A DNA stretch of 32,000 nucleotides from Pseudomonas asuensis. Lineage in GTDB: Bacteria > Pseudomonadota > Gammaproteobacteria > Pseudomonadales > Pseudomonadaceae. Under the pieces are notes generated by a model. The model was not told the DNA's origin. It saw only the letters and a program-made list of their open reading frames with translations, and did no database searches. The position numbers and the translations under genes were made by a program. Positions 2,100 to 30,024 of the stretch are shown here, piece by piece. Location of the stretch: positions 27,745-59,744 of the forward strand of contig NZ_BMNW01000006.1 of assembly GCF_014646755.1 (NCBI RefSeq), written 5' to 3'. How positions within the stretch are numbered: the stretch's first letter is position 1; each line of letters begins with the position of its first letter.

Positions 2100-2122
2100 A
2101 AAGCCTCCGTAATCAATTAGAG

Positions 2123-2923: not shown

Positions 2924-3783
2924 TTCACACCTCCTTCATCGCCAGCGGCGTATAGGTCGCGGACGGTTACCGCATCGATGGGTTGTTCGGGTTCAAGACG
3001 GCCGAGGCGGTCAAGAAACCAGGCGTACCGCCGACTACGCTCGAGCGCAGGCTTACCTTGTCTGAAACAGGTACGAATCTGGGCATGGATTGTTTCGGTA
3101 TCATCAGGTACATAGGCGTCAACAAGGCCCGTCACATGGCGCTGCTCACCACCGGTCAGGCTCCAGATGAAGGGACGATCCCGAGAATCGTACTCCTCGA
3201 TTCCCGCCTCCTGCTCAATGACTTGAGGGCCATTCAGGCCCAGCCGTGCCTCTTGCGTCACAATCAGATAGCTGCACAGGCCGGCAGCGATGGACATACC
3301 ACCAAAACAACCAACGGGGCCGGCGATAACTGCTATGACCGGCTGGTACTGTCGGAGGTCGACGATAGCCGCCTGGATTTCAGCAATAGCGGCCAGACCG
3401 AGATTGGCTTCCTGCAAACGTACGCCGCCTGTCTCCAATAGCAGCACGGCGCGGGTTGGAATACCGTTGCGGTTGTCTTCGGCAGCCAGTTCCAGGGCTC
3501 CGGCAATCTTGGCCCCGCCCACCTCACCCATGCTTCCGCCCTGGAAAGAGCCCTCAATAGCGGCAATCACCGTGGGCTGACCTTCAATCGTGCCCTTGGC
3601 AATGACCACGCCGTCATCAGCCTGCGTCACGATGCCCTGCTTGGGTAGCCAAGGCGACATCATGCGTTCAAACGGGCCGATCAATTCGCGGAAGCTGCCC
3701 TGATCAAGCAGGGCGCGAGCCCGCTGCCGGGCACCCAATTCAATGAAACTGCGAGATTGGAGTAGGCGTGCGGTATCAGTCAT
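2920..3783 (-). CDS. mdcD: malonate decarboxylase beta subunit (carboxyltransferase)
   Basis: Acetyl-CoA-carboxylase-beta-like sequence ([22 protein letters not shown]...). I chose the ATG at 3783 over the ORF-track start at 3858, which would run deep into mdcC. Confidence 0.9.
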   Translation of the reverse strand: MTDTARLLQSRSFIELGARQRARALLDQGSFRELIGPFERMMSPWLPKQGIVTQADDGVVIAKGTIEGQPTVIAAIEGSFQGGSMGEVGGAKIAGALELAAEDNRNGIPTRAVLLLETGGVRLQEANLGLAAIAEIQAAIVDLRQYQPVIAVIAGPVGCFGGMSIAAGLCSYLIVTQEARLGLNGPQVIEQEAGIEEYDSRDRPFIWSLTGGEQRHVTGLVDAYVPDDTETIHAQIRTCFRQGKPALERSRRYAWFLDRLGRLEPEQPIDAVTVRDLYAAGDEGGVK

Positions 3784-4090
3784 GGAATGCTCCTTCCAAC
3801 TGTAACTCTTCCAGCCCTTGTTCCAGGCGTAAACGCACAACGCCGGGCGTCGCACCAAAATCGTGGATCTCGATATTCAACGCTGGTGGCGTCTGCTCAC
3901 GAAACATCCGCTCGAACAGGTTCTGCCAGCGCGCCGCACTGCCATTCACCGATGTCACGACATTCAACCTGAGCATGCCTGCCTCGCCGGGCTCCAGCAG
4001 CACCTCCAGGTCTCCCGAGCCAACACCGCCCACCAGGGCTCTACCCCGAGGGGACTGACCGGCTGGAAATTCAAACTTCAAGGTTTCCAT
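3776..4090 (-). CDS. mdcC: malonate decarboxylase acyl carrier protein (delta subunit)
   Basis: 104 aa ([11 protein letters not shown]...) between mdcB and mdcD. Size and position are typical of MdcC. Confidence 0.9.
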
Positions 4091-4962
4091 GAGATAGCGC
4101 TCCTCTGCATGCAGGATTCCAGGCGATCAAGAAAGAGGGTAGAGGCCAGCAGATCGGCAGCACCACCGGGGGATGCATTCAGGCGTAGTAACGCGTCGTC
4201 CAGTTGGCGCAACGCGCGTCTGCCCGCCAGGGTTGCGCTGCCACCCTGCGCAAGGACTGCCTGCGCGCCGTGCTGAAGCGTATCCAGACCTTCAAGACCC
4301 GCCCTATGCAGGACGCAGGTATCCGGTAAAACGGCCATGATGGCGATAAGCGCATCAAGCCGCGCATTTTGCTCTCCGGCGCCTTTCGCTCGGCTCTTCA
4401 ACAGTTGTGGTAAACCATGCCCTACCACAGCGGGGAACCCCGCTTGCGCCTGTTCACGGGCGCCGGGAAGACCGTATCGGGCGCAGGCCCTGAGACCATG
4501 ACTATTCTGTACCTCAGGCGCAAATCGATCAGGCAGGCGTGCCAACACAGCAGCGCGGTGAGCCACGTCCGCAGGAGAACCGTGTTCCGGTTCAAACGCT
4601 GCGGCAGCAGTCAGCAGGCCCAGCGCCCAGATCGCGCCCCGGTGCGTATTGACTCCACCAGTGGTTTCCAGCATGACACTTTCGCCCTTGCGGCCTAGCT
4701 GACCCAGCATCTCGCGCAAGGACTGGTCTAAGTCCTGCGCAACACTGGCGGCTTCCGCCATGTCTTGAAAGGTTTGCCGCAGTGCATAGGCCGAGCTGTG
4801 CATTAGCCCCAGGTTCAGGTCCGTATGCGCGCCATTATTTCGGCGATCGACCAAGCCAGGTTTGGGTGAAAGATCTGCCTCGTCGATAAGGACTTGCACA
4901 GCCAGATCCGCCAGCTGCCCGGCAAAGGAAGAGGTGAGGGGTACCGCGATCAAGGCACGCAT
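4078..4962 (-). CDS. mdcB: triphosphoribosyl-dephospho-CoA synthase
   Basis: The internal ATG at 4962..4960 overlaps the mdcA TAA (4964..4962) by 1 nt, reading TAATG. Translation starts [11 protein letters not shown]... The CitG/MdcB family call rests on operon context and length (294 aa). Confidence 0.88.
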
Positions 4963-6629
4963 TACCAACTCCTGAATTTGGCTGGAGGGTTGTAAAGACC
5001 GCCTGACCACTCCACGAGGTCGGCAATGCTCTTGGCTGCCAGGAGTTCGCGTGTAGCATCGGTACGGCGGATACCCAGGTCTTCCGGCAGGGCCAATAGG
5101 CCGTCGCGGCGCATCTGCTCGGTTCTTTTGGGATCGTGGCGTAAACCGATATCAGTCACACCCGCAACCGCTGCAATCAATGCCCGACGCTCCTCTTGAG
5201 AGCGGGCCTTGTACAGATAGGCAATTCCTTCCTCTGTAAGCAGATGCGTGACGTCATCGCCATAGATCATCACGGGCGCCAGTGGCATGCCGCTTTTTTT
5301 AGCAACATCGACAGCATCGAGCGTATCGACGAACGTGGGTTTGCCACCCTCCTGGAAGGTCTCGACCATCTGCACTACCAGCTTACGGCCACGCTCAAGC
5401 ATGGCGGTCGGGCCTTCTTCCACCCGCATATCGAGCCATGCGGGTGTGCCGTGGCGACGGCCATGTGGGTCATGTCCCATGTTGGGTGCGCCTCCAAATC
5501 CGGCCAGGCGTCCACGTGTTACGGTAGAGGAATGTCCATCGCCATCCACTTGTAGCGTTGCGCCAATGAACAGGTCGACAGCGTATTGTCCTGCCAGTTG
5601 GCACATCATCCGATTGGAGCGCATGGAGCCGTCACGCCCGGTGAAAAACACGTCCGGCCGGGCTGCGATATAGTTTTCCATGCCCAGTTCGGTGCCAAAG
5701 CAATGAACGCTTTCCACCCAGCCGCTTTCAATCGCTGGAATAAGCGTGGGATGCGGATTGAGCGTCCAGTTACGACAGATCTTGCCCTTGAGGCCCAGTC
5801 GTTCACCATAGGTGGGCAGGATCAGTTCGATCGCAGCGGTATTGAACCCAATCCCGTGGTTGAGCGACTGCACGTTGTGTTTTTCATAGATTCCTCGGAT
5901 CGCCATCATTGCCATGAGCACATGGACGGGCTTGATATGGCGAGGGTCTCGGGTAAACAACGGTTCGATGTAAAAAGGTTTGTCCGCCACCACCACAAAG
6001 TCGACCCAGGAAGCGGGGATATCCACGCGCGGCAGATCGCTTACGTCGTCCACCAATTCGTTGACCTGAACGATGACGATGCCATCGCTAAAGGCACCTG
6101 CTTCGATAAGGGCGGGTGTGTCCTCGGTGCTGGCGCCCGTATAAATATTCCCGTGCCGGTCTGCCTTGAAGCCAGCGGACAAGACAACGTTGGGAATCAA
6201 GTCCACTAACAGGCGTGAGTAAAGTTCGATGTAGGTATGGATAGCGCCAACTTCCAAGAGTCCGTCTTCGAGCAGCTGACTGATACGCAGGCTCTGTGTG
6301 CCGGCAAAGGAGAAGTCCAATTTGCGAGCGATGCCGCGTTCAAACAGGTCCAGATGTTCGGCGCGCCCTACGCTGGGCATGATCATGTGCAGATCATGGA
6401 GCTTGCCAGGGTCCGCCTTGACCAATGAGCGAGACAGAAAATCCGCCTGCTTCTGATTGTTGCCTTCCAACACCACGCGATCACCGGGGGCAATCAGCGC
6501 TTCAAGAGCTTCAACGATCCGCTCGGTTCGAATGATCGCGCCTTCAGCATAGGCACTTGCCTGAGCGACACGCCGCTGCTTTTCGGTGCGCCGCCGCGAC
6601 CATTGAGGTGGAGGAGAAGTTATTGTCAT
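4962..6629 (-). CDS. mdcA: malonate decarboxylase alpha subunit (acetyl-S-ACP:malonate ACP transferase)
   Basis: 555 aa, first gene of the operon. Size and sequence are typical of MdcA. Confidence 0.92.
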
Positions 6630-14333: not shown

Positions 14334-15257
14334 ATGAAAGCCATACGTGCACAGCAATACGGGAACCCCGAGGTACTCCGCCTTGAAGAAGTAGCTGATC
14401 TGACGCCGGGTAAAGGACAAGTGTTGATTCAGGTAGCTGGTAGTGGAATAAATCCAATCGACTGGAAAGTCCTCTCCGGGGCCATGAAGCGGTTTATCCC
14501 CTTACCGTTACCCTATACGCCAGGGGTTGAAGTCGCAGGAACAGTTATCGCATTAGGTGAGGGCGTAGACATATTCAGCCTGGGCGACGAGGTTTTTGGC
14601 TTCATCGGTATTACAGGTGGGTACGCCACCCAGGCAGTAGCGGATGCCGACAGGCTGGTCTTAAAGCCCAACAGCCTTTCATTGCTAGAGGCAAGCGGTG
14701 TGCCGGCGGCAGCCTTGACGGCTTGGCAAGCCTTGCATGAGCATGCTGCCATTCAGACAGGCCAACGTGTCCTGATCCAGGGAGCGGCGGGCGGGGTTGG
14801 CAGCATGGCCGTACAGTTGGCTCGTATAGCTGGCGCTGAAGTCATCGCGACGGCATCTGCCCATAATCATGATTACCTACATGCACTAGGCGCTACACAA
14901 CTCATTGATTACCGCCATGAAGCATTTGAGAAAGTTGTTTCGGATGTAGATATCGTAATCGACCTTGTAGGCGGCGAAACTCAAGCCCGCTCCTGGTCAG
15001 TGTTAAAAAAGGGCGGTGTGCTGGTGTCACCCGTCAGCGCGCCGAGTGAAGAAGCTGCTCGTAGCATAGGAGCAACAGGCAAACGCTTCGCTACCCGTTC
15101 AGACGGGAAGCAACTAGCACAGATTGCCGACTTATTTAACCGGGGAGCACTTAACGTGGAAGTAGAAACCATACCCTTGTCCAGGGCAGCTGATGCGCTA
15201 CAGAGAAGCCTAGCAGGCCATACGCGGGGCAAAATTGTGCTGGATGCTCGGGAATAG
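14334..15257 (+). CDS. NADPH:quinone oxidoreductase-like MDR (zinc-independent)
   Basis: MKAIRAQQYGNPEVLRLEEV...GINPIDWK, and an AAGGVG Rossmann motif. 307 aa. Confidence 0.88.
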   Translation: MKAIRAQQYGNPEVLRLEEVADLTPGKGQVLIQVAGSGINPIDWKVLSGAMKRFIPLPLPYTPGVEVAGTVIALGEGVDIFSLGDEVFGFIGITGGYATQAVADADRLVLKPNSLSLLEASGVPAAALTAWQALHEHAAIQTGQRVLIQGAAGGVGSMAVQLARIAGAEVIATASAHNHDYLHALGATQLIDYRHEAFEKVVSDVDIVIDLVGGETQARSWSVLKKGGVLVSPVSAPSEEAARSIGATGKRFATRSDGKQLAQIADLFNRGALNVEVETIPLSRAADALQRSLAGHTRGKIVLDARE

Positions 15258-15291
15258 CAAGATTCCAAATGTTAAACTGATGAATACTTAA

Positions 15292-15323
15292 TGGCCGGTT
15301 CTCTAAAACCGGTCATTTGGTTT
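15292..15323 (+). terminator. rho-independent terminator after the oxidoreductase gene
   Basis: TGGCCGGTT-CTCTAA-AACCGGTCA (9-bp stem with one G.U pair) followed by TTTGGTTTG. It marks the left edge of the AT-rich island. Confidence 0.6.
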
Positions 15324-15385
15324 GACCAATTTTTGAAAGATATTATTTTTCCCATATCTCTAATGCTGAAGTTTATAAATAAAGA

Positions 15386-16021
15386 TTAAGATGGAGATAT
15401 AAAAAATACCCCTTTGAGAGTGGTTGGTGACTGTCTTTTAGGAATTAGTAGGTAAGCATTTGCGTCGGTAAGATAGAATATATCTTTATAAGGGATTGGA
15501 AAGTCAGAGGAGTAAATTTGTAGCGCAACATTGTAATTTTTGGCAATGTATTTTTCTAGGGAAATTTGTTTTGGGGTTTCGCTTGTTATCATGGAGCAAA
15601 CTACAAAATCATCCACCTCAAAATGCTCGTCAACAATTTTGGCGTATGTCTCAGGTATAGTATATGTCTCCGATTTTATAAGTTCTGCTTCTAGGTCTTC
15701 GCTATGTATAACTTGAGTGTATCCATTACTAATAAATTGTAAATCCTCAATGCTGCCAGAGGTACTTATCAAGTCTAGAAAGTATTCGCCCGGGTGATAG
15801 GTCGAGAAAATATAGATTATTCCATTGTTTGGAATAGTGTCCGGTAAGAAATAAAGTTTAGCTAGAGAGCAGTTTATACTCATAACCAATGTAAGCGGTA
15901 AGTGGTCAGGATTTTTTGGCCAAGCCTCTACTTTCGCTTGGCTACCACCAAGCGTGATACCACAATGTTTATTTAAGTCCGAGGTTGGGACAATTCTCTT
16001 TACTGTCTTGATTTTACTCAT
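15386..16021 (-). CDS. hypothetical protein, DUF1963 (YwqG)-like pattern; last gene of the T6SS island
   Basis: 211-aa ORF in strongly AT-rich DNA. The segment GITLGGSQAKVEAWPKNPDHLPLTLVMSINCS...LPDTIPNNGIIYIFS resembles the GG..P...WP...PL.F..QI....lP..G.l.fF signature of DUF1963. This is by eye and not HMM-verified. Confidence 0.6.
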   Translation of the reverse strand: MSKIKTVKRIVPTSDLNKHCGITLGGSQAKVEAWPKNPDHLPLTLVMSINCSLAKLYFLPDTIPNNGIIYIFSTYHPGEYFLDLISTSGSIEDLQFISNGYTQVIHSEDLEAELIKSETYTIPETYAKIVDEHFEVDDFVVCSMITSETPKQISLEKYIAKNYNVALQIYSSDFPIPYKDIFYLTDANAYLLIPKRQSPTTLKGVFFISPS

Positions 16022-16104
16022 TTGCAGTCTATAAGTATTTTATAAAAAACGAAGGCTTAACTATTTAATTATATATTTTCTAGTTGTAAATTTATCATTT
16101 TGGA

Positions 16105-16476
16105 CTATAAGTCAAATAGAGGGTGCGTCGGAAAAATGCCTGCCATGTAGCTAGCCCATAATCTTTCAATAAAATGATTTTCGATTTTATTAAGGGCTGC
16201 TTCAGAGATTAGACCAATATCATCAGATGCATACCCTGCTAGCTCTGAGTTTTGAGTTAATTTAAAAGTATTTTTAAATGCTATTTCTCTAAGTGATAAA
16301 ACTTCGACATTTTCATCTAGATTTATTGTTCTTATTTCTTTAAATGCCGAGGACCAGGCGGAGTCAAAGTCTTCATGGTCTCTGGCATCTAATGCAGTAT
16401 TCCAGTCTCTATCTACAAAAATCGATTCGTAAAAGCTATCTGCTTCGATTTTTTCTTTAATGTCTAAAAAATTCAT
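16105..16476 (-). CDS. hypothetical acidic protein, candidate immunity protein of the decayed orphan-1 toxin
   Basis: 123-aa AT-rich ORF. AAGGAGG lies 9 nt upstream of the ATG, and that SD sits inside the last codons of the toxin remnant (...VENWLRRQG*). I recognise no family. Confidence 0.6.
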   Translation of the reverse strand: MNFLDIKEKIEADSFYESIFVDRDWNTALDARDHEDFDSAWSSAFKEIRTINLDENVEVLSLREIAFKNTFKLTQNSELAGYASDDIGLISEAALNKIENHFIERLWASYMAGIFPTHPLFDL

Positions 16477-16530
16477 CTCAACCCTGCCTCCTTAGCCAAT
16501 TTTCTACAAGGTTAACTGCTTGTACAGGCG

Positions 16531-17065
16531 TTACATTTTTACTAAGAATATGAGTCCCGTTGCATAAGCGTACATATACTTTAATGTCATTAAGCGATCA
16601 TAAGCCTCAAAAAGCTCGTAAATCGTCCCGCCAGTGGATCGTAATAACGAACGTATTGTAATGCAGGCCCGTTTCGGCGTCGTAGTACTGTCCTTGAAAA
16701 CGTAGGTTCCGCTCGATCTCTCTGGGAGCCAGCGCTTCCAACGCACCCTATGCCTTGTAGTAAGCGCGCCATACCATGTGGCCGGCATCGTCCGTAAACT
16801 CAAGCGGCGTATCAATCTGGTTGGTGTGAAAGCAGTAGTGCTTAGACTTTTGATCAGGCTGGCTTGGCTCAGTGATTCATGGCCGCGGTAGGTTTCGGCT
16901 TTAACCAGGCGGTTTTCGCAGTCGTAGGTAAAACGCTGATAACCATTAGGATTGTGCCGCTCGCTGACGTTACCCCAAGCGTCGTAGGTGAGGCGCAGGT
17001 CTTTCCAGGCCTTGAGGCGGTTGTCTGGGCTCAAGGCTTGGGAGGCGCTCAGGTTGCCGGCAGGG
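16531..17065 (-). pseudogene. orphan Rhs C-terminal fragment 1 (decayed)
   Basis: It starts with ...[62 protein letters not shown], identical to the main Rhs. Relative to the main gene it has a 190-bp deletion at an AGCCAGC microhomology (~16858-16864). It also has TAG (16748-16750) in place of the Trp of YYKTWG, and a 1-nt deletion in the NTFRYYDP codons (~16650). The sequence after DPLAGRFT stops within 9 codons. The 167-aa ORF in the track is a chimeric reading across these lesions. Confidence 0.85.
16886..17065 (-). repeat. 180-bp direct repeat, copy in orphan 1, identical to 20252-20431
   Basis: Base-by-base comparison shows no mismatch over 180 bp. Four mismatches occur in the 35 bp immediately downstream in gene sense (16851-16885). 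Similarity ends abruptly at 17066. Confidence 0.9.
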
Positions 17066-17179
17066 ATACTCCTCTGATAAAGGTCTGTACCATAAAACCT
17101 TTCTCCCTGGGACCAAACAACTAGTAGCCGATTTTAAAAAATATTAATTGCATAATAAAGTTAATCAAATGCACAGTTT

Positions 17180-17752
17180 TCAGTTTTCATGAATCAGGTT
17201 AAAATTAAAGCTTTCAATAGTTGTCTCACTAGATAATTGTGGTAACTCATAAGACTCTATGAGTTCAATTTTGTATATGTAAGTATTTTCTTTTTTTGAA
17301 TCTGAGCGAACCCCTCTAATATTTGCCGAATAGATGCCTGGCTTGACATCAAGATAGTCATTATTTTCTAGCTTAGAATGATAATTAGCTCTGTAATGTA
17401 AGAAGAAATTCGGTTCCCAATCAAATAAAGCGTTAAGGTCTGCCGTTATTAGTAAGCCTGATTTTACTGTTAGTGGAAATCCTGAATAAAAGAAATCTTC
17501 TATAAGGTCAGGTTGGTTTTTTCCGCTATCAATATGAATGTAATAGTCATGCTCTACTATTGGATATAGAGATAATATTACGCCTTTTTTTATGGACTCT
17601 TGGCCTATATCTTCGTTGTTTATGAAGTGCTCAAATATATTGTTTCCTATATAATTTTTTTCTATGAGAAAAGCGTTCAAGACCAATGGGTCAAAGATCA
17701 CTATGCCCGGAGAATGTAGATTTATATGAGATTTATTTTTAAATTTATCCAT
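17180..17752 (-). CDS. hypothetical protein, candidate immunity protein of the orphan-2 toxin
   Basis: 190-aa AT-rich ORF. Its ATG overlaps the last codons of the toxin remnant (ACTGGAGGTTGTAATGGATAA), and GGAGG serves as the SD. I recognise no family. Confidence 0.6.
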   Translation of the reverse strand: MDKFKNKSHINLHSPGIVIFDPLVLNAFLIEKNYIGNNIFEHFINNEDIGQESIKKGVILSLYPIVEHDYYIHIDSGKNQPDLIEDFFYSGFPLTVKSGLLITADLNALFDWEPNFFLHYRANYHSKLENNDYLDVKPGIYSANIRGVRSDSKKENTYIYKIELIESYELPQLSSETTIESFNFNLIHEN

Positions 17753-18490
17753 TACAACCTCCAGTAATTTTGCTTTTCCATTTTAGTGATTTATGTAAGG
17801 CTTCCCGTATTGTAATATTTTCCCCTATGACTTCTCCAGTTTTAGGAGTTTTTAATGTTCCTTTAGCTGTAAAGCTTTCGTAAGCAACATCAATTTTTTA
17901 ATCAATTCCTCCGTGCTACCATCAAACTTTCTGTTAAATGGAACACCCATTTTACTAAGAGATTTATGAAATTATTCGTGAAGTTTGTCAGAGCCCGCTA
18001 TGGCATTAGGGAACCATGAGGGTGAGTTTAGTTTAGTACCCAATTGAGGATACCCGTGAGAATTGGCATGTGCTCTGGGAAACGGATGGTGGCCCATTCC
18101 GTCAGACTTCAATGGCTTCCAGAAAGGCATCCAGCCCCATGGGTCAGCCCAGCTAATAGCATTAGAGGCATATTGGTAGAGATTTATACTACCTAATAAA
18201 CCAATCGGGTCCTGCGTCGTAAACCGTCCTATCAGCGGATCGTAATAACGAAACGTATTGTAATGCAGGCCCGTTTCAGCGCCGTAGTACTGCCCCTGAA
18301 ACCGCGAGTTCTGCTCAATCTCTCTCGGGACCAGGGCTTCCAGCGCGCCCCATGTTTTGTAATAGGCACGCCATACCATATGGCCGGTATCGTCCGTGAC
18401 CTCAAGCGGGGTACCGATCTGGTCGGTATGAAAGTAATAGCGCTTGGGCTCATCTGGCGATTTGGCTTTGTATCTACACGAGTGAGCCAT
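17745..18490 (-). pseudogene. orphan Rhs C-terminal fragment 2 with an interrupted HNH/EndoVII-like toxin tip
   Basis: 17972-18490 encodes ...[19 protein letters not shown]...[40 protein letters not shown]. By eye this is ~90% nt identity to 19765-20033 of the main gene. It continues GMGHHPFPRAHANSHG...AGSDKLHE and hits TAA at 17972-17974. The same frame continues FHKSLSKMG... for 39 codons. A third frame then ends ...IREALHKSLKWKSKITGGCNG* at 17745, which resembles the main toxin end ...YREALEKL...NSIRTGGC*. Confidence 0.75.
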
Positions 18491-18775
18491 CGGGACGGCA
18501 TTGAGTACCGGCTAACTAGGCTCCTCCGCCCCTGGGCCAATGATTAGGTGGAACGCTTGAGCCGCACGATTAAATAGGCCACTAGCAAGGACTTTCACCA
18601 TGCCTCGCTTAAACAATTGCAGAATCATATAAAAGATCATCTCTGGGTCTATAACACCGCTCGCTTCTTGCGCTCATTGAAAGGACAAAGAACGACTGGC
18701 TTTATCCTCCAGCAATGGCAGAATAGGCACAATTCTTTTTAATCGATTCAGACACTTTATCTTCGATAGATAAAA

Positions 18776-19345
18776 TTAAAGCCTGAGCTTCTTTTCGAGA
18801 AGTTGTATTCCTTTAATATTGGATTCTTTTATCTCTCTGGCGACATCGTTAGAAATTGCTACTTCTGAGAGACATTCTTTGCATCTAAATATTGATTTTT
18901 CAGTCTGTAGATCAATTAAAGTAATTTTTGTAAACTTCTTAGGTCCATCTGGGAGAAAATCAATTATTGGTTTGCATATACAGTTGGCCATATCAAAAGC
19001 TTCTTGTATAGATAAATAGTTTACTATGTAAAACCCTTCATGGAATTTGCCTTTATGTCTTATTTTTGTTTCTAAAAGCTGTATAGAATCTTTGGAGAAA
19101 TTTGTAAGTAGCTTGGCGAGCCTTTTGCTTATGACGTCAGGGCCATTACTAAACAGGTAATCATAAGAAGTTAAATTCTTGATTGATGCGTTTGATTTTG
19201 CAGATAGATATATGTCTTTAAAATCATTCGGATTTACGGGATTTCCTATCTTCAAGCTTAGTGAGTCAGGAAAAATGTTTGTGTCATATTCGAGCCAGTA
19301 ATTGTTGGGATATTTTTCATCTATATCAATTAGGTACATCAGCAT
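18776..19345 (-). CDS. candidate cognate immunity protein of the Rhs nuclease tip (Imm11/DUF1629-like pattern)
   Basis: 189-aa AT-rich ORF. Its start overlaps the rhs stop (ACAGGAGGATGCTGATG). The segments [11 protein letters not shown]...IQLLETKI...FYIVNYL...[33 protein letters not shown] resemble the DUF1629 layout as I remember it. Not HMM-verified. Confidence 0.65.
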
Positions 19346-22300
19346 CCTCCTGTCCTTATTGAATTTTTGTTTAATAATATTCTTCCAGATCTTAAGCCTT
19401 GCCTATTCTCAATTATAAGCTTCTCTAAGGCTTCACGATACTGACTTGAATTCCAATTCTTAGACTTTCCATAGCTATGTAATGCGTCTAGGTCTGCTCT
19501 AATGTTTTCAGTGTACTTGGGGTGTGATCCTCGATGGACTGTCCTAGTTGCATGATTCTCAACGTATTTTGGTAAGTAAATTATGTTTTTTAAATTATGT
19601 ATATTGAAATTTGCTGCCTTTAAGGCTTCATGTGCTTTAAGTTCTTGGGGGATGATGTGATGTTTTTGAAAACCACTTATACTATTCATAGTGTTATAAG
19701 TGGTAAGGCCTTCTGGATCAACCCAAGACTGGCTATTGACTGCATATTGATATAAATGACTTCCCCCTAACAACCCGATTGGGTCCTGCGTTGTAAACCG
19801 TCCCACAACCGGATCGTAATAACGAAACGTATTGTAATGCAGGCCCGTTTCAGCGTCGTAGTACTGCCCCTGAAACCGCAAGTTCTGCTCAATCTCTCTC
19901 GGGACCAGGGCTTCCAGCACGCCCCATGTTTTGTAATAGGCACGCCATACCATGCGGCCGGTACTGTCCGTGACCTCAAGCGGAGTGCCGATCTGGTCGG
20001 TATGGAAATAGTAGCGCTTAGGCTTTTGATCAGGCTGGCTCGGATCAGTATCTAACCGAGCGAGCGGGGCGTAGCTGCCGGTTTCGTAGATATACAGGCT
20101 GTGTAGATACGCTTTTTGCTCCTGCAGCATGCGCAGGCCTTGCCAGAGGAAGCGGGTCGTTTCGGTTTTATCCTCTGTTAGAACATGCTTGGCAATACGG
20201 CGGCCAAGGCAGTCATATTCGTAGCTGGCTTGGCTGAGCGAGTCATGGCCTCGGTAGGTTTCGGCTTTAACCAGGCGGTTTTCGCAGTCGTAGGTAAAAC
20301 GCTGATAACCATTAGGATTGTGCCGCTCGCTGACGTTACCCCAAGCGTCGTAGGTGAGGCGCAGGTCTTTCCAGGCCTTGAGGCGGTTGTCTGGGCTCAA
20401 GGCTTGGGAGGCGCTCAGGTTGCCGGCAGGGTCGTAGCCGAAGTCCTCATTACCGAGCTGGGGGTGGTGTGGTTCGCGGCTACGCAGTTGGCCAATGGCA
20501 TCGTATTTGTAATCCGTAGCGCCACGGTGCTTATCGATCTGCCGTAGGAGTTCGCCCGCCTTGCTGTATTCATAGCGGCGATGTATGAGCGTGGCGGGAT
20601 GTTCAGGATGACCGAGCAGGCTGTTCTTTTGCGCGTTGAGTTGCGAGAGCTGTTCATGCGGCAACTCAATAGTGGCTTGCCAGCGTTTACGGCCAAAGCT
20701 GTCGTATCCAAAGCGGCTGGTTAGGCTGCCTTGGGTACGCAAGGTCTCCCTGTGTAGGGCGTCACGCTCGAAATCGCTGATCAGCAAGCCGTCGAGGTTT
20801 AGTTGGTGCAGATGACCGCTGCCGTAATACAGATGATTGAGCGTACGACCATCCGGCAGGCTGAGCTGAGTAAGATTACCTAGTGCATCGTAAGTGTAAG
20901 CCAGTGCGCCCAAGGCTGACTGCTCTTCTACCAAGCGGCCTGCCTTGTCGTAGCTGAAGCTAAGAACGTCCGGCCGTATGCCCAGCGTTTTACCGTGCTC
21001 GCTGGGCTGCCGTTCAATGGCTACGACCCGATCCAGCTCGTCATAGGTGTAATCCAGGCGAGCATCCTGGGTCATTTTGCTGAGTAAACGACCTATGGCG
21101 TCGCGCTCAAATTCGCTGGAGCGTGTCTGGCCTAGTCCCGCCTGGTCAGCGGTATGCTCATCCATGCGGATTAGTGCGCCGGATACGTTGTAGTGGAAAC
21201 GACGACGCAGACCGTCTATACGAATTTCTTCTATCAGGCGGTCAGCTGAGTCATAGGCAAAACGATAGGCCGCCCCGTTCTCGTTTACCAAGGCAGCCAG
21301 ACGCAGCGCCTGATCATAGTGGTAACGGACTCGCTGGGCTTTGGCGTCCTTGCGCTCTACGGGTAGGCCGCGAGCATTACGAGTGACGTTTGTTGTACGC
21401 TTATCAGCATCAGTATGGGTAAGTAGCTGCCCAAGCGCATTATAGGTATAGGAATCTATACTGCCGTCAGGATGCTCGACCCGAAGGACTTCGCCGTCGG
21501 GTTTGCGATGCAGTCGGGTGGTTTGGCCGAGTGCGTCGGTTACTGCCGCAAGATGTAAGTGTTCACTGTAGGCATAGTGGGTGTGGTTGCCTGAGCAGTC
21601 CTGATACCGGGTAACTTGGCCAAGGGCGTTCCACCAGTAATAAGTATTGTTGCCTAAGGCATCCGTTACGGTATGGGGTAGGCCATTATCGGCACTAAGA
21701 TAGCGAGTGATTGCGCCAAGCTCATCCGTCTGAGCCAGCAAGCTACCTGCCTCATCGTATTCCCAGCCGAGTGCGCTGCCATCGGGCCTCGTCAGTGAGG
21801 TAAGGAATTCAGTATTGAGATGATAGGTATATACCGTCGAGCGACCGATAGGATCAGTGTCTTTGACTAGTCTTGAAAACCCATCATATTCGAAAGCTAA
21901 TGTATTGCTGTCAGGGAGCGTCACACCCGTTATGTTGCCTGACTCATCTAAGCCAATGTGGTATTGCTCACCGCTAAAGTCTTGGGCAAAAGTGACACGA
22001 CGGTTTTCATCGTAATGAATAATGGCTTTGCGATTTAACGTATCAATAATGTATGTCGTACGAGCTGTCAGATCATAACTGAAGCTGTAGCGCTCACCAT
22101 CACTGGTCCAATGCTCTGCTACTCGCAGGCTGCCGTCTGGGAGTTTGCCCCACCGATAATGACACACCAAACCTAGGGCATTTTCATGCATGACCATGAG
22201 GCCGTGGTCATAGCCAAAGCGTCGACTGGTAGCGCCATTGCGATTAGTGATGCCGACGAGTTGATCCTGCGCATCGTAAGCATAGCGAACAAGGGTTTCT

Positions 22301-23523
22301 ACCGGCTTGCAATCCTCGATACGCTCTACCCGCACCAAGCGATTACCCGCTTCGTTGTAGCAGAGATGGATACGTACCATACTCTTTGAGTGGATATCGG
22401 TCAGCCGACCTTCTCGATACGTAAGCGCCAGGTAATTACCGTGAGCATCCTCGATGCGTTTGAGCGGAGCGGGCGTGCCATCCTCTGGTAGATCGCCAAA
22501 ATAGAGAAATGTACAGTCGAGGGTCTGCAATAGATAATGGCCGCCCTCAGTACAAACGATCGTAAACTGCTCCGCTGGATAAAAGACTCGCTCATTAGGA
22601 TTTAGTAGTTCGAGCGGAATTTCCCGGCCCTGGTTATCGCTTAAAACTAGACGATCCTTCTCGCGCCGTAGGCTTTGCTCCCAGGGCATTACCCAGCCGC
22701 GCCCGAGAATACCCTCACGCTCGATGTCGCTGGCGTAAAAGCGTGCCCAATGGATAGGCAGCAGGCCGGGAAGCGTAAAATCGATCTCACTGTCTTCCAG
22801 CAATAGTTTACGACCATTTACCGCGTCAACCGGATGGCCAAACAGTGCGCCGAAAGCACGCGTCAATACTGGGGCCGCTACTGCTCGTGTAAACGCCTCG
22901 GAAGCGGCAAAGGTGGCTGCAAACTTGAGCGCGCAGGGCATAACGGCTTTCAAGCCATTCTTGGCTGCCATTTTCACAAGGCTGCCTATACCGCCACCGA
23001 GTGCCATCAGAACATCAACCGTGGTACGTAACCATGCCGGTACTTCGTCATCTATAGGCAGATAGGTCTGAGTTTCGGCTCCAACATTTACATTAGGAGA
23101 ACCCGAGTCGATCGTTGCACCACAGGTGAGTTGATCTCCTTTACGGGCAGCGGGAAAACCGTTAATGAAGACTTTGGCTGAACCTTGGGCAATTTGCGGG
23201 GGCTTGCTATGCTTCTCACAGACGCCGGTGTCCGCCTCAACACGCGCAGCCGCTAGACCGTTGATAAAGGTATTGGGCGAGCCGGAAACAATCCCTCCGG
23301 CGGGGGTACTCCTTGATCGTCCGATCGTTTCGCCGAGCGCAGTCAGTGCTGCTCCGCCAAAGCCAGCCAGTACGCCCGCCATCAGGGCAACACCAAAGCC
23401 GCAGGTAGCGGTTGCTACTGCTACTCCTACTACAAGGGCAATACCTATCGCCGCTCCGGCAAGAAAACCGCCTAACGCGCTGGTATGGACGATCTCATCG
23501 TCAATGCGAGCGGCTTCGTACAT
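19339..23523 (-). CDS. rhs: T6SS effector: prePAAR motif, TM region, PAAR, TM region, Rhs/YD-repeat cage and a C-terminal toxin
   Basis: ATG at 23523 with GGAGA upstream gives [14 protein letters not shown], which matches the prePAAR motif AARxxDxxxH. The next elements are a Gly/Ala-rich TM stretch, PAAR motifs (NGLAAAR, NGFPAAR) and a second hydrophobic region. After that come many YD repeats, then [40 protein letters not shown], the DPxGL autoproteolysis signature. A 121-aa tip ends the protein. 1394 aa in total. Confidence 0.95.
19342..19704 (-). other. Rhs C-terminal toxin domain, AHH-type HNH/EndoVII nuclease-like
   Basis: After DPEGL the sequence is [21 protein letters not shown]...NIIYLPK...[17 protein letters not shown]. 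The HHIIP ... LP ... H.GSH..Y pattern fits the AHH nuclease family. Base composition turns abruptly AT-rich exactly at this junction. Confidence 0.65.
20252..20431 (-). repeat. 180-bp direct repeat, copy in the main rhs gene, identical to 16886-17065
   Basis: See the partner entry. Encodes [59 protein letters not shown]. Confidence 0.9.
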
Positions 23524-23602
23524 TTGACTTCTCCCTGTCACACGGATTGTCTTTCGCCGTGCCAAGCAAACCTGATGATGCTTATTGATTCCGCTTCACG
23601 AG

Positions 23603-24034
23603 TTAACGAGACGGAATAAAATTACTTAAAAGCTCTACCCACAATGCATCCTGTTCTGATGTAAACGGTGCTTGTCCGCTCGCGGTAAAAACAAGAACGC
23701 GCTCGGGTGCCATTGGAAAAGCAGCCTGACGCTGATATACGTCTTTGCCGCTTGCCTTGTACCGAGAATCAATTTGGATACCCTGAATGGGGACGTTCAT
23801 GGATAGCTGCGCCAGCTTTCTGTCCAAAGGTTTGTACTTGGCAAGTTTTGCGGCGATCAGCTCAACCTGTCGGTCAACATAATCATCAAGGGCCTCGTCC
23901 GAGGGTTTGGTATCTCGGGAAACCGTAAGGCTGAACGGAAAGGGGGCCGTGTCTCCCGGAACGAATACATTGATGGTGCGATCCTGAAAGCCAGCAGGCA
24001 GCTTTAAAGTACCTTCGTTGATCTTGTAGCTCAT
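23603..24034 (-). CDS. eagR: DUF1795-family Eag chaperone for the prePAAR effector
   Basis: 143 aa. The N-terminus MSYKINEGTLKLPAGFQDRTINVFVPG matches the EagR/EagT6-type start (..EG.l.lP.g..DrsiNvf). It lies between vgrG and the prePAAR rhs gene, which is the canonical arrangement. Confidence 0.85.
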   Translation of the reverse strand: MSYKINEGTLKLPAGFQDRTINVFVPGDTAPFPFSLTVSRDTKPSDEALDDYVDRQVELIAAKLAKYKPLDRKLAQLSMNVPIQGIQIDSRYKASGKDVYQRQAAFPMAPERVLVFTASGQAPFTSEQDALWVELLSNFIPSR

Positions 24035-24054
24035 GAGATTTCTCGAAATTTGGA

Positions 24055-26019
24055 TTACTGGGAGGCAGAGCCTGATCCATTCGTACCTGATGAAGGATGG
24101 AATACAGCATTGATCTGAGCATCGATTGAGGCCTTCACTCCTTGCCCCTCCGGTGAGGCTCCTGCCTTACCACCCGGCACATTGATGTCGAGAGTGCCGC
24201 CAGTGTTTATCTGGCCTGCGCCGCTGGCGCTGATATTGAATTCAACACAGGAAATATTAACGAGGCCGTTGGCGTACATCTCGAACACGCTTTCGCCACA
24301 AACAAGGCGAATACCTTCACCTGCCTCAATGAGATATGTTGAGCTGACGCTATCCACCTTCGAGCCGCCTACCAGCAGCTGGTCATCCACCTTGACGATA
24401 CGCATGCGGTTCTGACCAATGACTACCGTTTCGTCCTGACCAATGGTTTTGGTTCGGTCAACCCCTACGGAGTGGGTTTCACAATTGCCCACTTCAATGT
24501 CCATGTCGCGCTGACCGTGTACGTAGATCTGCTCTGCACCGGCTTTATCTTCGATTCGCAGTTCATTGAAGCCATTGCCGCCAGGCGTGCTTCTGGTCTT
24601 GAAGACTGTCCGGGTCTTGTTGGCGGGCAGGTTGTAAGGCACCAGGTTTGCGGCGTGATGCAGGCAGCCTGTAATAAGTGGCTGGTCCGGATCGCCTTCC
24701 AGAAAGGTGACCAGTACTTCCATTCCGATTCGGGGAATCGTGACGGCACCATAGCCTTCATGGGCCCAGTTGCTGGCAACACGCAGCCAGCAACTGCTGT
24801 GCTCGTTCATCTGGTCCAATCGATCCCAATGGAATTCCACGCGGACGCGACCGTATTGATCGCAGTAGATTTCTTCTCCAGCGGGGCCGGTGACAATTGC
24901 GGTCTGGCTACCCAGGATTTTTGACTTAGGGTGCTTCAGGGCTGGTCTGAAGATCGTGTCCCAAGGCACTGCCGTAAAGAAGTTGCGATAGCCCTGCTGG
25001 AAGCCATCCTTGTCATCTACATGCGAGGATATGGATTCTTCTAATACTTGGGGTTGTTTGCCTTCGTGTGTCAGCTCGGTGAATAGCCACAAGTCATTCC
25101 ATTCACTGCGTGGGTGCTCGGTCAAGGGCATGAAGTGGCCGGAAACAAGTGTTGGCAGGTCACTCTTACCGCGGGCGATCTGGTAATCCGAGCGATGCCT
25201 TTCCAAAGCGCGCTGGCTTAGCTGCTTGCCACGGGCGCGGTCCATGAAGGCGCCAGGGTAGTCATAATCTTCCAGCTCTGGCACAGCCTCGCCGGTGTGA
25301 GACGCTTCCATGGTGAGTTTGGGCTTTTCAAAGTTGTAGTCCCGGCGGCTCACTTTGGTTGTTCGGGTTTCAACCTGGACTGCAAATTTTCGTATGACCT
25401 GATGGTCCGCAACCAGTCCCGTATCCTGCTGGAAGAGCGCAGGGTTCAGCTTGGGGAAGCAAGTCTGATCATCACCAAAGACCATAATGTGTTCAGTCTG
25501 GGTATGCTCAAAGTGGTAATGAATACCTTCTTCTTCACAAAGCCGATTGATGAAATGCAGATCAGTCTCATCGTACTGAACACAGTATTCACGCTCGGGA
25601 TAGGCTGAGCCCAGCTGAAAGCGAAAGGCATTAGAAAGAATGCCATGTTCTTTCAGAACGGTGGCGATGATATCGGGCACGTTAAGGTGCTGGAAGATAC
25701 GCTGGTTATGCCGATGGCAAAGATAGTGGACACGCGGCACGAGCGTGACACGGTAGCGCGTCATACGCTTGCCGGACTCGCCTTGTTCGGCACTGTGAAT
25801 CAGGCCATTGAACCCCGTACCGGTCTGCTCCAAGGCTAGGAAGGCAGGCTGATTAAGCAGCGATTCAAGGTCAAAGTCAGGCTTTTCGCTGATCAGTTCA
25901 ATATCGAACCGAAAGCCGCTATTCAATCCTTCACGCCCTGCAAATTCCAGCACCTGAAAATCATGGGGAACACCCGGAATCTCAAGTGTGAACTGGGTTT
26001 CATTGGCTGGGGAGAACAT
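24055..26019 (-). CDS. vgrG: T6SS spike protein VgrG
   Basis: ATG at 26019 with GAGGAACGAGG upstream gives MFSPANETQFTLEIPGVPHDFQVLEFAGREGLNSGFRFDIELISE, a typical VgrG N-terminus. gp27/gp5-like core, 654 aa. The ORF-track extension to 26112 is rejected. Confidence 0.93.
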   Translation of the reverse strand: MFSPANETQFTLEIPGVPHDFQVLEFAGREGLNSGFRFDIELISEKPDFDLESLLNQPAFLALEQTGTGFNGLIHSAEQGESGKRMTRYRVTLVPRVHYLCHRHNQRIFQHLNVPDIIATVLKEHGILSNAFRFQLGSAYPEREYCVQYDETDLHFINRLCEEEGIHYHFEHTQTEHIMVFGDDQTCFPKLNPALFQQDTGLVADHQVIRKFAVQVETRTTKVSRRDYNFEKPKLTMEASHTGEAVPELEDYDYPGAFMDRARGKQLSQRALERHRSDYQIARGKSDLPTLVSGHFMPLTEHPRSEWNDLWLFTELTHEGKQPQVLEESISSHVDDKDGFQQGYRNFFTAVPWDTIFRPALKHPKSKILGSQTAIVTGPAGEEIYCDQYGRVRVEFHWDRLDQMNEHSSCWLRVASNWAHEGYGAVTIPRIGMEVLVTFLEGDPDQPLITGCLHHAANLVPYNLPANKTRTVFKTRSTPGGNGFNELRIEDKAGAEQIYVHGQRDMDIEVGNCETHSVGVDRTKTIGQDETVVIGQNRMRIVKVDDQLLVGGSKVDSVSSTYLIEAGEGIRLVCGESVFEMYANGLVNISCVEFNISASGAGQINTGGTLDINVPGGKAGASPEGQGVKASIDAQINAVFHPSSGTNGSGSASQ

Positions 26020-26418
26020 CCTCGTTCCTCTGCTTCCTGCTCGGTATACAAGGCATGTCCAGGCGGGCAGCGTGTCGCTTTTCTGGAGATGCGTAAGTGG
26101 CTCCCCATACACGGTATAGGCGGTGGGGATTTACCGGCAGGCTAAACGAAAGACGCTGGCAGAATCTTGCGCAGTAGGTATGAGAACGGTAGGCGTTGTT
26201 TAAAAATACGAACCAGTTCTTATAGGTTTCTAGTTAAGGCTTAAGCTGCCTTGGTGTTGCGCTTGTGGAAGGATCTAAGCCAAGCAAGACAGGCCCTGAA
26301 AAGTCTGATAGTTATGCTGATTAAGTTTCATCGATAGGAGGCATAAGCTGTCACCGGCAAGTACGTTTCTTGTTCTTCACGCGCATCCTTGCGCAGCGAC
26401 TTTATCAGGAGCCTTACA

Positions 26419-27507
26419 ATGGAAATAATGGCCGCAGTTACTCATTCCAAAGGACAGCCCTTTAGCCTAGAGAAGGTTACCCTGTCTGATCCGACTGCTA
26501 ACGAAGTGTTGATTCGGATTGTTGCGACAGGTGTTTGCCATACTGATGCCGTTGCCCGTGACTTAGGGCTTTCGCCCTATCCCGTAGTGCTTGGTCATGA
26601 GGGCGCAGGCATTGTCGAGCAGGTAGGCTGTAATGTTAGTGATCTGGAGATAGGCGATCATGTGGTCCTGTCGTTTGCGCACTGCGGTAAATGCGAAAAT
26701 TGCCTGACCGGGCATCCTACGGTGTGCAGGGTCTTTAACGATCTCAATTTTGGCGGCCGCATGGAGGACCATACCTGTCGGCTTCGCCAGGGAGATACCG
26801 AACTCTCTTCCTTTTTTGGTCAATCATCCTTTGGCACCTACGTGATTGCCAGCGCACGTAATGTCGTCAAGGTTGATAAGGAAGTGGACCTAGCGTTATT
26901 AGGGCCGCTGGGTTGCGGTATTCAGACGGGGAGCGGAACGGTATTTAACCGCCTTCGCCCGGGGTTTGGGGACAGCCTTGCCGTTTACGGCTGTGGTGCT
27001 GTGGGATTGAGCGCGATCATGGCAGCAAAGATTGCAGGGTGTGCTCAGATTTTTGCGGTCGATGTGCATGATAGCCGTCTTCAGCTAGCCAAGGAGCTTG
27101 GTGCTACGCATGTGTTCAACGGTAGTCAGGTTGATGTAGTCAGGGAAATCAAGGCTGCCTCTTTGGGCGGTACGCACCACGCGGTTGAAACTACAGGGGT
27201 TCCGCCGGTTGTTCGCCAATGCCTGCAGGCGCTGCGGCCATTAGGGCAAGCGGCGATTGTAGGCGTAACCCCCGAAATGACCATTGATGTTCATAACGAG
27301 ATCATGGCGGAAGGAAAGACCATGATGGGTGTGATTGAAGGTGATGCCGTGCCACGCCTCTTTATTCCCAAGCTGATCGAGTACTACAAGGCAGGGCGCT
27401 TTCCGTTCGACAAGCTTGTCAGGTTTTATGATTTCAAGGACATCAATCAGGGATTTGAAGATTCCAAGCAGGGAATCACCGTTAAAGCCGTCCTGAAATG
27501 GAGTTAA
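26419..27507 (+). CDS. zinc-dependent alcohol dehydrogenase (aryl/benzyl-alcohol dehydrogenase-like)
   Basis: GVCHTD, GHEGAG and the structural-zinc Cys cluster CGKCENCLTGHPTVC. ATG at 26419 has CAGGAG 7 nt upstream. The ORF-track start at 26389 is a TTG. Confidence 0.9.
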   Translation: MEIMAAVTHSKGQPFSLEKVTLSDPTANEVLIRIVATGVCHTDAVARDLGLSPYPVVLGHEGAGIVEQVGCNVSDLEIGDHVVLSFAHCGKCENCLTGHPTVCRVFNDLNFGGRMEDHTCRLRQGDTELSSFFGQSSFGTYVIASARNVVKVDKEVDLALLGPLGCGIQTGSGTVFNRLRPGFGDSLAVYGCGAVGLSAIMAAKIAGCAQIFAVDVHDSRLQLAKELGATHVFNGSQVDVVREIKAASLGGTHHAVETTGVPPVVRQCLQALRPLGQAAIVGVTPEMTIDVHNEIMAEGKTMMGVIEGDAVPRLFIPKLIEYYKAGRFPFDKLVRFYDFKDINQGFEDSKQGITVKAVLKWS

Positions 27508-29267: not shown

Positions 29268-29726
29268 GATTGAAACCTCTTGCGTAGCAGGAAAGGGTAA
29301 GCATTGATACAGGCATCGTAGCGAATGAATGTGTTTGCTAGAGCAGCTCTCTACCGGCATTACCCATGCGCCTACAGTAGGGCTCTAGGCCTGCGCAAAA
29401 CAGATTCAGATTCTTAATAAAAAACCGTATCAGATGTTGAGTCACCCTTTTTTGGCATTGTTGCACGCCGTTAGCTGAGTAGTCTCAATACGCGTTGACT
29501 CTGGTAGACCGCCTTCAGCTTGGGCTGATTTGTCTTCGAGGCACGACCCTTGTGACAAAAAATGTCACTGCTGGTCCCAAACCGTTACGCTTGGCCAACA
29601 ACATTTTGTCAACTCTTTCATGCTTGGTAAGCGTGTAAATTTTATGAATTTTTTAAAACTGCTTTCTCTACCCCTAAATTTTGTGAACGTTGTCGAAAGT
29701 AATTCGTGTTTTTTTGGAAAAACCTA

Positions 29727-29753
29727 AAACAACTGTTTCACAAACAGCTGTTT
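29727..29753. promoter_or_regulatory. two tandem palindromes, AAACAACTGTTT and AAACAGCTGTTT, upstream of the GH5 gene
   Basis: Site 2 (29742-29753) is a perfect 12-bp palindrome. Site 1 (29727-29738) differs at one base. Their starts are 15 bp apart. They lie in an AT-rich intergenic region ~270 bp upstream of the GH5 ATG. Confidence 0.35.
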
Positions 29754-30024
29754 AATACAGTGAAACCATTTTTATAAGCTATTGATTTTAAATAAATTTA
29801 TATGTATTGACGAAAAACAATAGTGTCATATTGATATTAATTTCACTGCTTTTTGAGTGGCACGCTTTTCTCAATCCCCCGGTAGTACAGCCACGCTCGG
29901 CCACCAAGCAAGGTAGTTAGTTCTGCCTGAAGACCAAAACGATAACAGTCTTGATACGAGCCTTTTAGGTTCGGCCGTTAAGTGCGCACTTCAGAAATGA
30001 CACTTTAGGTTTATTGGGGAATTC

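Follow-up and report, generated by a model that had tools for sequence, protein, structure and literature searches.

Organization of the locus

The stretch of DNA considered here, 32,000 nucleotides (nt) of contig NZ_BMNW01000006.1 of Pseudomonas asuensis and hereafter called the window, contains an intact rhs gene and, directly downstream of it and in the same orientation, an array of partial rhs copies with inactivated toxin tips and three small open reading frames (ORFs) of 190, 123 and 211 amino acids (aa). The main rhs gene is full-length and includes its delivery domain. This gene and the features of the array are listed below in the order in which they are read; orphans A and B are orphans 2 and 1, respectively, of a preliminary description of the same sequence.

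19339-23565, minus strand: main intact rhs gene, encoding prePAAR, PAAR, the Rhs core and an AHH nuclease tip (Pfam prePAAR_I, E 7.9e-23; PAAR, 3.1e-18; RHS_repeat, 2.5e-56; RHS, 1.9e-13; AHH, 4.4e-18)
18168-18487, minus strand: orphan A, copy of the 3' end of the core, equivalent to main aa ~1167-1275 (85.8% nt identity to the main rhs gene; Pfam RHS, E 4e-14; NCBIfam Rhs_assc_core, 6.6e-25)
17745-18130, minus strand: toxA, inactivated toxin tip of orphan A, predicted divergent PT1-like DNase domain (aligned to the intact tip in the related loci L001 and L004)
17180-17752, minus strand: 190-aa ORF, intact, predicted cognate immunity gene of toxA (GGAGG 5 nt before the ATG; GC 0.32)
16618-17065, minus strand: orphan B, Rhs core fragment equivalent to main aa ~1045-1258 (BLASTN against the main rhs gene)
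16478-16597, minus strand: toxB, remnant of a PT1-family DNase tip (last 39 codons and native TGA)
16105-16476, minus strand: 123-aa ORF, intact, predicted PIM1-family immunity gene against PT1 DNase (AAGGAGG 10 nt before the ATG; GC 0.34)
15386-16021, minus strand: 211-aa ORF, intact, YwqG/DUF1963 family (Pfam DUF1963; GC 0.37)

The core copies were assigned by a BLASTN comparison of positions 15300-19338 with the main rhs gene (19339-23565, minus strand). This yields three homologous segments downstream of the main gene (18487-18168, 17065-16858 and 16873-16618), together forming two incomplete copies of the 3' end of the core, which fit the two additional copies placed earlier at ~16618-17065 and ~18190-18490. 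The fragments match main aa ~1045-1275 with 82-98% nt identity, while the N-terminal part is absent. Each of them runs into a variable tip of its own and then into a small ORF that would encode the immunity protein, i.e., toxA with the 190-aa ORF and the toxB remnant with the 123-aa ORF; the 211-aa ORF has no core fragment of its own. The GC content is 0.525 in the main rhs gene, 0.52-0.55 in the core copies and 0.32-0.39 in the tips and small ORFs. As stated previously, the three AT-rich ORFs (GC 0.32, 0.34 and 0.37) are uninterrupted on the minus strand, and the 190-aa and 123-aa ORFs keep strong Shine-Dalgarno (SD) sequences and native toxin-stop/immunity-start junctions.

Orphan A and the 190-aa ORF

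The tip of orphan A, toxA, consists of ~128 codons following the core motif DPWGW. The same module forms the live tip of a full-length Rhs protein of 1402 aa in Pseudomonas luteola CP044085 (L001), which bears out the displaced C-terminus arrangement that had been proposed. The toxA of the window, recovered by tblastn at 94% identity in two frames, differs from the intact homologue of L001 by a nonsense codon (GAA to TAA at 17974-17972) and by a frameshift at 17899-17894, where one A is lost (A7 to A6), precisely the nonsense codon and later frameshift that had been noticed. In two independent assemblies in which the module is also in an orphan position (L002 and L003), the frameshift is present and the nonsense codon is absent, indicating that the frameshift is real and older, whereas the nonsense codon is specific to the lineage of the window. 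In L002 and L003 the A7 to A6 change is the sole toxA lesion, and homopolymer slippage could in principle restore the frame.

No match for toxA was found in Pfam, nor in the Protein Data Bank (PDB) by single-sequence search. However, toxA carries a GHH motif, as does PT1, a metal-dependent DNase toxin domain that has been validated experimentally (bioRxiv 10.1101/2021.10.19.465003). A profile built from toxA and a related tip from locus L014 aligns with a PT1 profile (hhalign) at a probability of 97.8% and an E-value of 1.2e-12 over 113 columns, with the GHH motifs superimposed. Since the direct PDB search was negative, toxA is classified as a distant relative of PT1, with predicted DNase activity. 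The tip of L014 belongs to an orphan Rhs protein of 356 aa (1589-3174), shares 40% identity with toxA and 28% with PT1, and forms an intermediate linking the two toxin branches; the 171-aa ORF following it is weakly similar to the 190-aa ORF (26% identity, E 2e-4). The motifs of toxA, and those of the toxC tip described below, were sought in the supplement of the PT1 paper (bioRxiv 10.1101/2021.10.19.465003) and not found there.

In L001 the toxA-bearing rhs gene and a 90%-identical homologue of the 190-aa ORF overlap by 8 nt at the rhs stop codon, which places the homologue where a cognate immunity gene typically lies. The 190-aa protein would thus inhibit the PT1-like DNase toxA, which is live in other strains of P. 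luteola. Its family is small (12 clusters were found) and the protein has no sequence match in Pfam, NCBIfam or the PDB. The AlphaFold model (pLDDT 82) resembles ComJ/Nin (PDB entry 4MQD), the inhibitor of the Bacillus subtilis DNase NucA, with a Foldseek E-value of 3e-5, a probability of 1.0, TM-scores of 0.42-0.59 and a root-mean-square deviation of ~6 Å. Both proteins would inhibit a DNase. Unlike ComJ/Nin, however, the 190-aa protein is about 60 residues longer, and none of the 13 members of its family matches the Pfam ComJ model (PF11033) at E <= 0.1. The likeness of the model is therefore suggestive, but falls short of proving membership of the ComJ family. A true ComJ-family gene is present in the equivalent array of L002.

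Distant homologues of the 190-aa ORF (38-42% identity) are found in Rhs orphan/immunity arrays of other genomes (L005 and L072). At 8001-9091 of L005, and also in L006, homologues of the 190-aa (38%) and 123-aa (37%) ORFs adjoin each other, 155 nt apart, within an orphan immunity array of about ten genes (Imm-NTF2, DUF7716, SUKH, DUF6386 and others) and without an Rhs remnant between them. A two-gene functional unit, considered because of this adjacency, was rejected: the 190-aa gene occurs alone, with no 123-aa gene, in L002, the opposite holds for L007-L015, and each of the two genes has its own cognate toxin. In L072 and L073 (5843-6582 and 1014-2578), a PT1 tip is represented by its first 41 codons, which directly precede the 190-aa homologue, a junction suggesting that related tips of the PT1 type recombined or underwent a deletion between them. 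An apparently live pair of Rhs-PT1 and PIM1 is also present in this array.

Orphan B and the PIM1 homologue

Orphan B consists of a segment at 17065-16858 (main aa ~1045-1114, 98.1% nt identity) and a segment at 16873-16618 (main aa ~1173-1258, 82.1% nt identity), separated by an out-of-frame deletion of ~190 nt with its junction at 16871/16870, beside the 12-nt microhomology AGCCAAGCCAGC. In addition, a TGG codon is changed to TAG at 16750-16748 and 1 nt is deleted at ~16651. The deletion, nonsense codon and frameshift of the preliminary description are thereby all recovered, and what it termed 'almost no toxin tip' corresponds to the last 39 codons of toxB. The core homology ends abruptly after 'RYYDPLAGRFT' (~16618). 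The orphan of L001 shares this end junction, but not the internal deletions, which shows that the truncation is old and that the copies have decayed independently since.

The final 39 residues of toxB (16597-16481) are 54% identical to the Rhs tip of P. tremae (tblastn, E 3.5e-9), which in turn matches the toxin chain of PDB entry 8OWS (chain C) at an E-value of 8e-58. The native TGA of toxB is located 1 nt ahead of the ATG of the 123-aa ORF. The 123-aa protein is similar to PIM1, the immunity protein in the same entry (8OWS chain A), both in sequence (phmmer E 2.5e-15, residues 4-116) and in its predicted structure: the AlphaFold model, with a pLDDT of 94 and seven helices, matches 8OWS chain A with a Foldseek E-value of 4e-5, a TM-score of 0.81 and 35% identity. 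A search with HMMER against 1.84 billion representative sequences gave 389 family relatives, and no invariant or nearly invariant family residue is lost in the protein of the window. No Pfam or NCBIfam family covers the 123-aa ORF or any of the three toxin tips. The purified PIM1 protein PIM1(Em) abolishes PT1 activity in vitro and hinders the catalytic pocket (bioRxiv 10.1101/2021.10.19.465003). On the evidence of sequence and model the 123-aa ORF is a member of the PIM1 family, and its product is predicted to neutralise PT1. Of the two ORFs for which no family had been recognised earlier, one, that of 123 aa, thus falls into a family already described.

A genome scan with an alignment of 11 sequences as query revealed 48 loci with members of the 123-aa family, distributed over Firmicutes, Bacteroidota and beta- and gamma-proteobacteria. 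In L040, L041, L051, L057 and L072, the last being a metagenome array, the homologue overlaps an intact PT1-family Rhs tip or follows it by 0-33 nt; a complete PT1 tip is also present upstream of the homologues in L036, L038, L048 and L066.

The 211-aa ORF and the toxC tip

The product of the 211-aa ORF matches the Pfam family PF09234 (DUF1963) with 28.9 bits (cut-off 23, E 1.8e-6), over profile positions 12-109 of 216 only, and its homologues carry the NCBI name 'YwqG family protein'. A PDB sequence search gave no match. Hallmarks of the YwqG/DUF1963 family, which belongs to the TYPP superfamily, are a GGxP motif and a conserved Q (Burroughs & Aravind 2014, PMC4275035). In the subfamily of the 211-aa protein G25 and G26 are invariant but are followed by SQ instead of xP, and Q168 is conserved in >=90% of the sequences; these are candidate equivalents of the two hallmarks, taken from the subfamily alignment.

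The AT-rich spacer of 83 nt between the 123-aa and 211-aa ORFs (16022-16104) contains no toxin remnant. Elsewhere, however, homologues of the 211-aa ORF (35-43% identity) follow an Rhs tip, toxC, within 17 nt; the full junction is present in L020, where 8 nt separate the two, and in the metagenome loci L075, L077, L087, L091 and L092, while in L074 and L096 the same junction is cut by a contig end. The ~130-aa tip toxC is unclassified, has no match in Pfam or the PDB, and contains the motifs LFELGTYG, AHELLRHE, LDLDHHTR and HWHE. In five further metagenome loci (L078, L080, L081, L079 and L095) toxC is truncated or internally deleted and the YwqG gene is intact, the same asymmetry of decay as in the window. 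The placement of toxC before the 211-aa homologues is a signature of a cognate immunity gene, and this synteny strongly suggests that the 211-aa YwqG-family protein binds toxC as its immunity protein. Homologues of all three ORFs thus occur directly after toxin tips in other genomes, contrary to the possibility raised in the preliminary description that they are never found beside polymorphic toxin tips.

Selection on the ORFs and decay of the toxins

Six lesions are present in the array, all of them in the 1324 nt of core/toxin remnant and none in the 1581 nt of the three ORFs (P = 0.009 for uniform placement). In related loci of the P. luteola group the ORFs are open as well, in 4/4, 11/11 and 9/9 complete loci for the 190-aa, 123-aa and 211-aa ORFs, respectively; one of the 11 copies of the 123-aa ORF has an altered C-terminus and encodes 119 aa. 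The ratios of non-synonymous to synonymous substitution rates (dN/dS, Nei-Gojobori) are 0.18 for the 190-aa ORF (24 synonymous and 20 non-synonymous differences, binomial P 4e-7, dS 0.25), while the 211-aa ORF gives 0.17-0.24 (P <= 1e-4) and the 123-aa ORF 0.36-0.57 (P 0.03-0.06); for adjacent housekeeping genes the ratios are 0.17-0.22. The loci compared for the 123-aa and 211-aa ORFs contain toxB as remnants only, and toxC has no match outside L020 (tblastn). Because no live cognate toxin is seen at any of these loci, the constraint on these two ORFs applies to the orphan state. The earlier proposal that selection acts to keep immunity is therefore supported by the substitution ratios and by the intactness of the ORFs in related loci, marginally so for the 123-aa ORF.

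Taken together, the locus, in a genome of the P. luteola group, is very probably an orphan Rhs C-terminus/immunity array forming the 3' end of an auxiliary vgrG-eag-rhs island of a type VI secretion system (T6SS), in which the antidotes have been kept and the toxins have decayed. Such an array would arise when the conserved 3' end of the rhs core takes up new cassettes of toxin tip and immunity gene by recombination, each insertion pushing the previous tip and immunity gene downstream. One displacement step is seen in the comparison with L001: there toxA and the 190-aa gene make up the live tip module of the main rhs gene, whereas in the window and in L002 the AHH module occupies this position and toxA is orphaned, with a shared frameshift; we infer the array-forming model as a whole. 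A displaced tip would no longer be selected and would decay, because it has lost the prePAAR-PAAR-Rhs delivery part. The immunity genes would be kept because they can work alone, neutralising an incoming toxin inside the cell. In the window two DNase tips of the PT1 superfamily are dead and a third tip is missing entirely. Expression of the ORFs would depend on read-through from the rhs operon or on internal promoters, and their products would protect against neighbours.

Several observations weigh against this interpretation. For the 123-aa ORF the signal of selection falls barely below neutrality. Part of the divergence of the 190-aa ORF occurred on the L001 lineage, in which the toxin is live, and the constraint in the orphan state is not isolated from it; moreover, the copy in the window carries changes (P61S and D113E) in two columns of the family alignment with a conservation of >=90%. 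When the 19 aa differences between the copies of the window and L001 were polarised with 11 outgroups, 6 were derived in the window, 7 were derived in L001 and 6 were ambiguous, without an asymmetry or an excess in the window that would point to relaxed constraint. The nonsense codon of orphan A occurs in this window only, and a sequencing error is conceivable in principle. No recognisable SD sequence precedes the 211-aa ORF, so that the good SD sequences earlier attributed to all three ORFs stand for the 190-aa (GGAGG) and 123-aa (AAGGAGG) ORFs; its homologue in L020 has a clear GGTGAGG. A scan for sigma-70-type promoters gave 12 sites, compared with 12.5 +/- 4.4 in shuffled sequences. As the promoter/terminator scan shows no excess over the shuffles, it says nothing either way on internal promoters. 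Finally, only 32 kb of the genome is visible, and live copies of the same toxins elsewhere would mean self-immunity.

The weak constraint on the 123-aa ORF and the changes at conserved columns of the 190-aa protein would also fit neutral survival, in which the ORFs are intact merely because they are short and recently displaced, decaying like the toxins without selection, as would the small number of substitutions in the closest pairs (3 synonymous and 8 non-synonymous differences between the 211-aa ORFs of the window and L007). Such survival is nevertheless improbable, as the dN/dS values of the 190-aa and 211-aa ORFs are as low as those of the housekeeping neighbours (P <= 1e-4), the low ratio of the 211-aa ORF holds between lineages without a detected toxC remnant at the locus, and the ORFs are open in all related loci while the adjoining remnants bear several independent deletions. 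In addition, the dS of 0.25 for the 190-aa ORF implies that the divergence is not recent.

It is about equally doubtful that the ORFs are extra or principal antidotes to live PT1, toxA or toxC toxins at other rhs/effector loci of the same genome. Pseudomonads often carry several vgrG-rhs islands, which together with the limited view of 32 kb speaks for such self-immunity. On the other hand, a live toxin normally has its own immunity gene directly downstream, as is the case in every intact pair seen, and searches of the window with toxA, toxB and toxC (tblastn) find remnants only. That the ORFs are other cargo of the island, such as a chaperone-like YwqG/TYPP protein or phage-defence genes, is very improbable. 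In favour of it, a protein-protein interaction or chaperone-like role, and not immunity, has been proposed for bacterial YwqG proteins (Burroughs & Aravind 2014, PMC4275035), the literature searched holds no link between DUF1963 and toxin immunity, and some 211-aa homologues occur away from any toxin (L017). Against it, the 123-aa ORF is clearly homologous to PIM1, a live toxin gene and the homologue of the 190-aa ORF overlap at the toxin's stop codon, and the 211-aa family has a full Rhs-toxC <=17 nt upstream in 6 loci and a decayed toxC there in 5.

Genomic context of the island

Upstream of the array the island contains, in addition to the main rhs gene, three further genes.

24055-26112, minus strand: vgrG, encoding the T6SS spike protein of 685 aa at the head of the island (Pfam Phage_GPD, E 2e-85; Gp5_trimer_C; Phage_base_V)
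23603-24034, minus strand: gene of the DcrB/DUF1795 family, 143 aa (Pfam DcrB, E 2.3e-35)
18776-19345, minus strand: 189-aa Imm11-like ORF overlapping the stop codon of the main rhs gene, candidate cognate immunity gene of the main AHH tip (GC 0.33)

The order of the genes, all on the minus strand, is vgrG, the DcrB/DUF1795 gene, the prePAAR-PAAR-Rhs-AHH gene, the Imm11-like ORF and the orphan array. This is an auxiliary vgrG-rhs island and not a full T6SS cluster; the neighbours are ordinary metabolic and regulatory genes. From its position and family, the product of the DcrB/DUF1795 gene (23603-24034) would be the Eag-type chaperone for the prePAAR Rhs protein. The main rhs product has 1408 aa when counted from a TTG codon, although an ATG 14 codons further may be the true start. 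The 189-aa ORF scores 21.1 bits against Pfam Imm11 (PF07791; E 2.2e-4), just below the gathering cut-off of 22.1, and in view of this borderline score its label is limited to 'Imm11-like'.

The relatives of the window are genomes of P. luteola; the flanking genes are ~95% identical at the nt level to those of P. luteola CP044085 and other assemblies, and the best matches of the three ORFs are proteins of P. luteola or 'MULTISPECIES Pseudomonas'. An enterobacterial origin of the locus was rejected, as a megablast search of 15200-19400 against E. coli genomes gave nothing. Genes of the zinc-type alcohol dehydrogenase family lie on both sides of the island (14334-15257 and 26389-27507), and the same flanks are found in all P. 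luteola loci, which indicates a fixed insertion site with hypervariable content. When positions 21654-24176 of the window were compared with L001, the Eag-type chaperone of L001 proved only 44% identical and the N-terminal half of its Rhs protein could not be aligned; the locus is therefore mosaic at the 5' end as well as at the 3' end. In L009, L010, L011 and L013 the main rhs gene is called as two ORFs (978 and 418 aa; positions 1663-5852, 8 nt lower in L010); the delivery gene thus appears disrupted in these loci, yet the downstream PIM1-like and YwqG-like genes are intact. Outside the island, an AT-rich region without a long ORF (29500-30000, GC 0.39) has a GntR-aminotransferase gene on one side and unannotated ORFs on the other.

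Comparison with known systems

The organization of the array is that of the orphan rhs-CT/rhsI and cdiA-CT/cdiI arrays, in which old tips have been displaced by incoming cassettes (Poole et al. 2011, PMC3150448; Koskiniemi et al. 2014, PMC3967940). As in rhs-CT/rhsI arrays, a full-length rhs gene is followed, in one orientation, by 5'-truncated core fragments that each have a variable tip and a small AT-rich immunity gene. In Salmonella, however, the orphan toxin is intact, and recombination with the main rhs gene can reactivate it, whereas both orphan toxins of the window are inactivated, one of them cut to 39 codons. As a consequence, the toxins of the window are beyond recombinational rescue, which leaves the immunity half as the one part able to function.

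Orphan immunity genes are known to protect against non-self effectors (PMC10539506, PMC3150448, PMC3967940). Orphan or poly-immunity against non-self T6SS effectors has been described for the immunity genes to Rhs NADase toxins of Serratia (PMC10539506), for orphan immunity genes of Bacteroidales (bioRxiv 10.1101/2025.05.03.651265) and for a poly-immunity cluster of Stenotrophomonas (bioRxiv 10.64898/2026.07.13.738213). The window shares with these systems the presence of immunity genes without their cognate effectors, which would protect against neighbours, and a strain of the same species, CP044085, has one of the toxins live. Its array differs in being small (three genes) and in the remnants of the source toxins, which are still visible. 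With respect to the PT1-PIM1 pair (Nachmias et al., bioRxiv 10.1101/2021.10.19.465003; PDB entry 8OWS), the window combines a PIM1 homologue of 123 aa with the 3' end of PT1 upstream, but the PT1 partner itself is deleted. The second tip, toxA, keeps the GHH motif of PT1, yet pairs with the unrelated 190-aa family, which is of mixed alpha/beta structure, while PIM1 is all-helical.

Implications

The analysis confirms the observations of the preliminary description and upholds its interpretation, and the retention of orphan immunity genes is established biology; the general understanding of Rhs and orphan-immunity systems is not changed by this locus. Its novelty is at the level of annotation, namely a PT1-like toxin branch with a ComJ-like immunity family and the pairing of a YwqG clade with toxC. 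Three hypothetical proteins receive functional labels, i.e., a PIM1-family protein, an immunity protein for a PT1-like DNase and an immunity protein for an unclassified Rhs tip. PT1 and the toxA branch lack a Pfam model, although the structure of PT1 has been solved (8OWS), and toxC is flagged as an Rhs toxin domain without a match in Pfam or among solved structures.

The locus also makes a course of Rhs evolution traceable, with a tip that is live in one strain, frameshifted in others and additionally interrupted by a nonsense codon in the window, while the immunity gene has been constrained throughout. In the literature searched, no description was found of the YwqG-clade/toxC pairing or of that between the ComJ-like family and the PT1 branch. 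On balance the evidence favours the proposal that the YwqG/DUF1963 clade is the cognate immunity to toxC, that the ComJ-like family of ~190 aa is the immunity to the divergent PT1 branch, and that the array is a small acquired defence island. If this is true, the array would defend its host against three toxin types circulating among pseudomonads.

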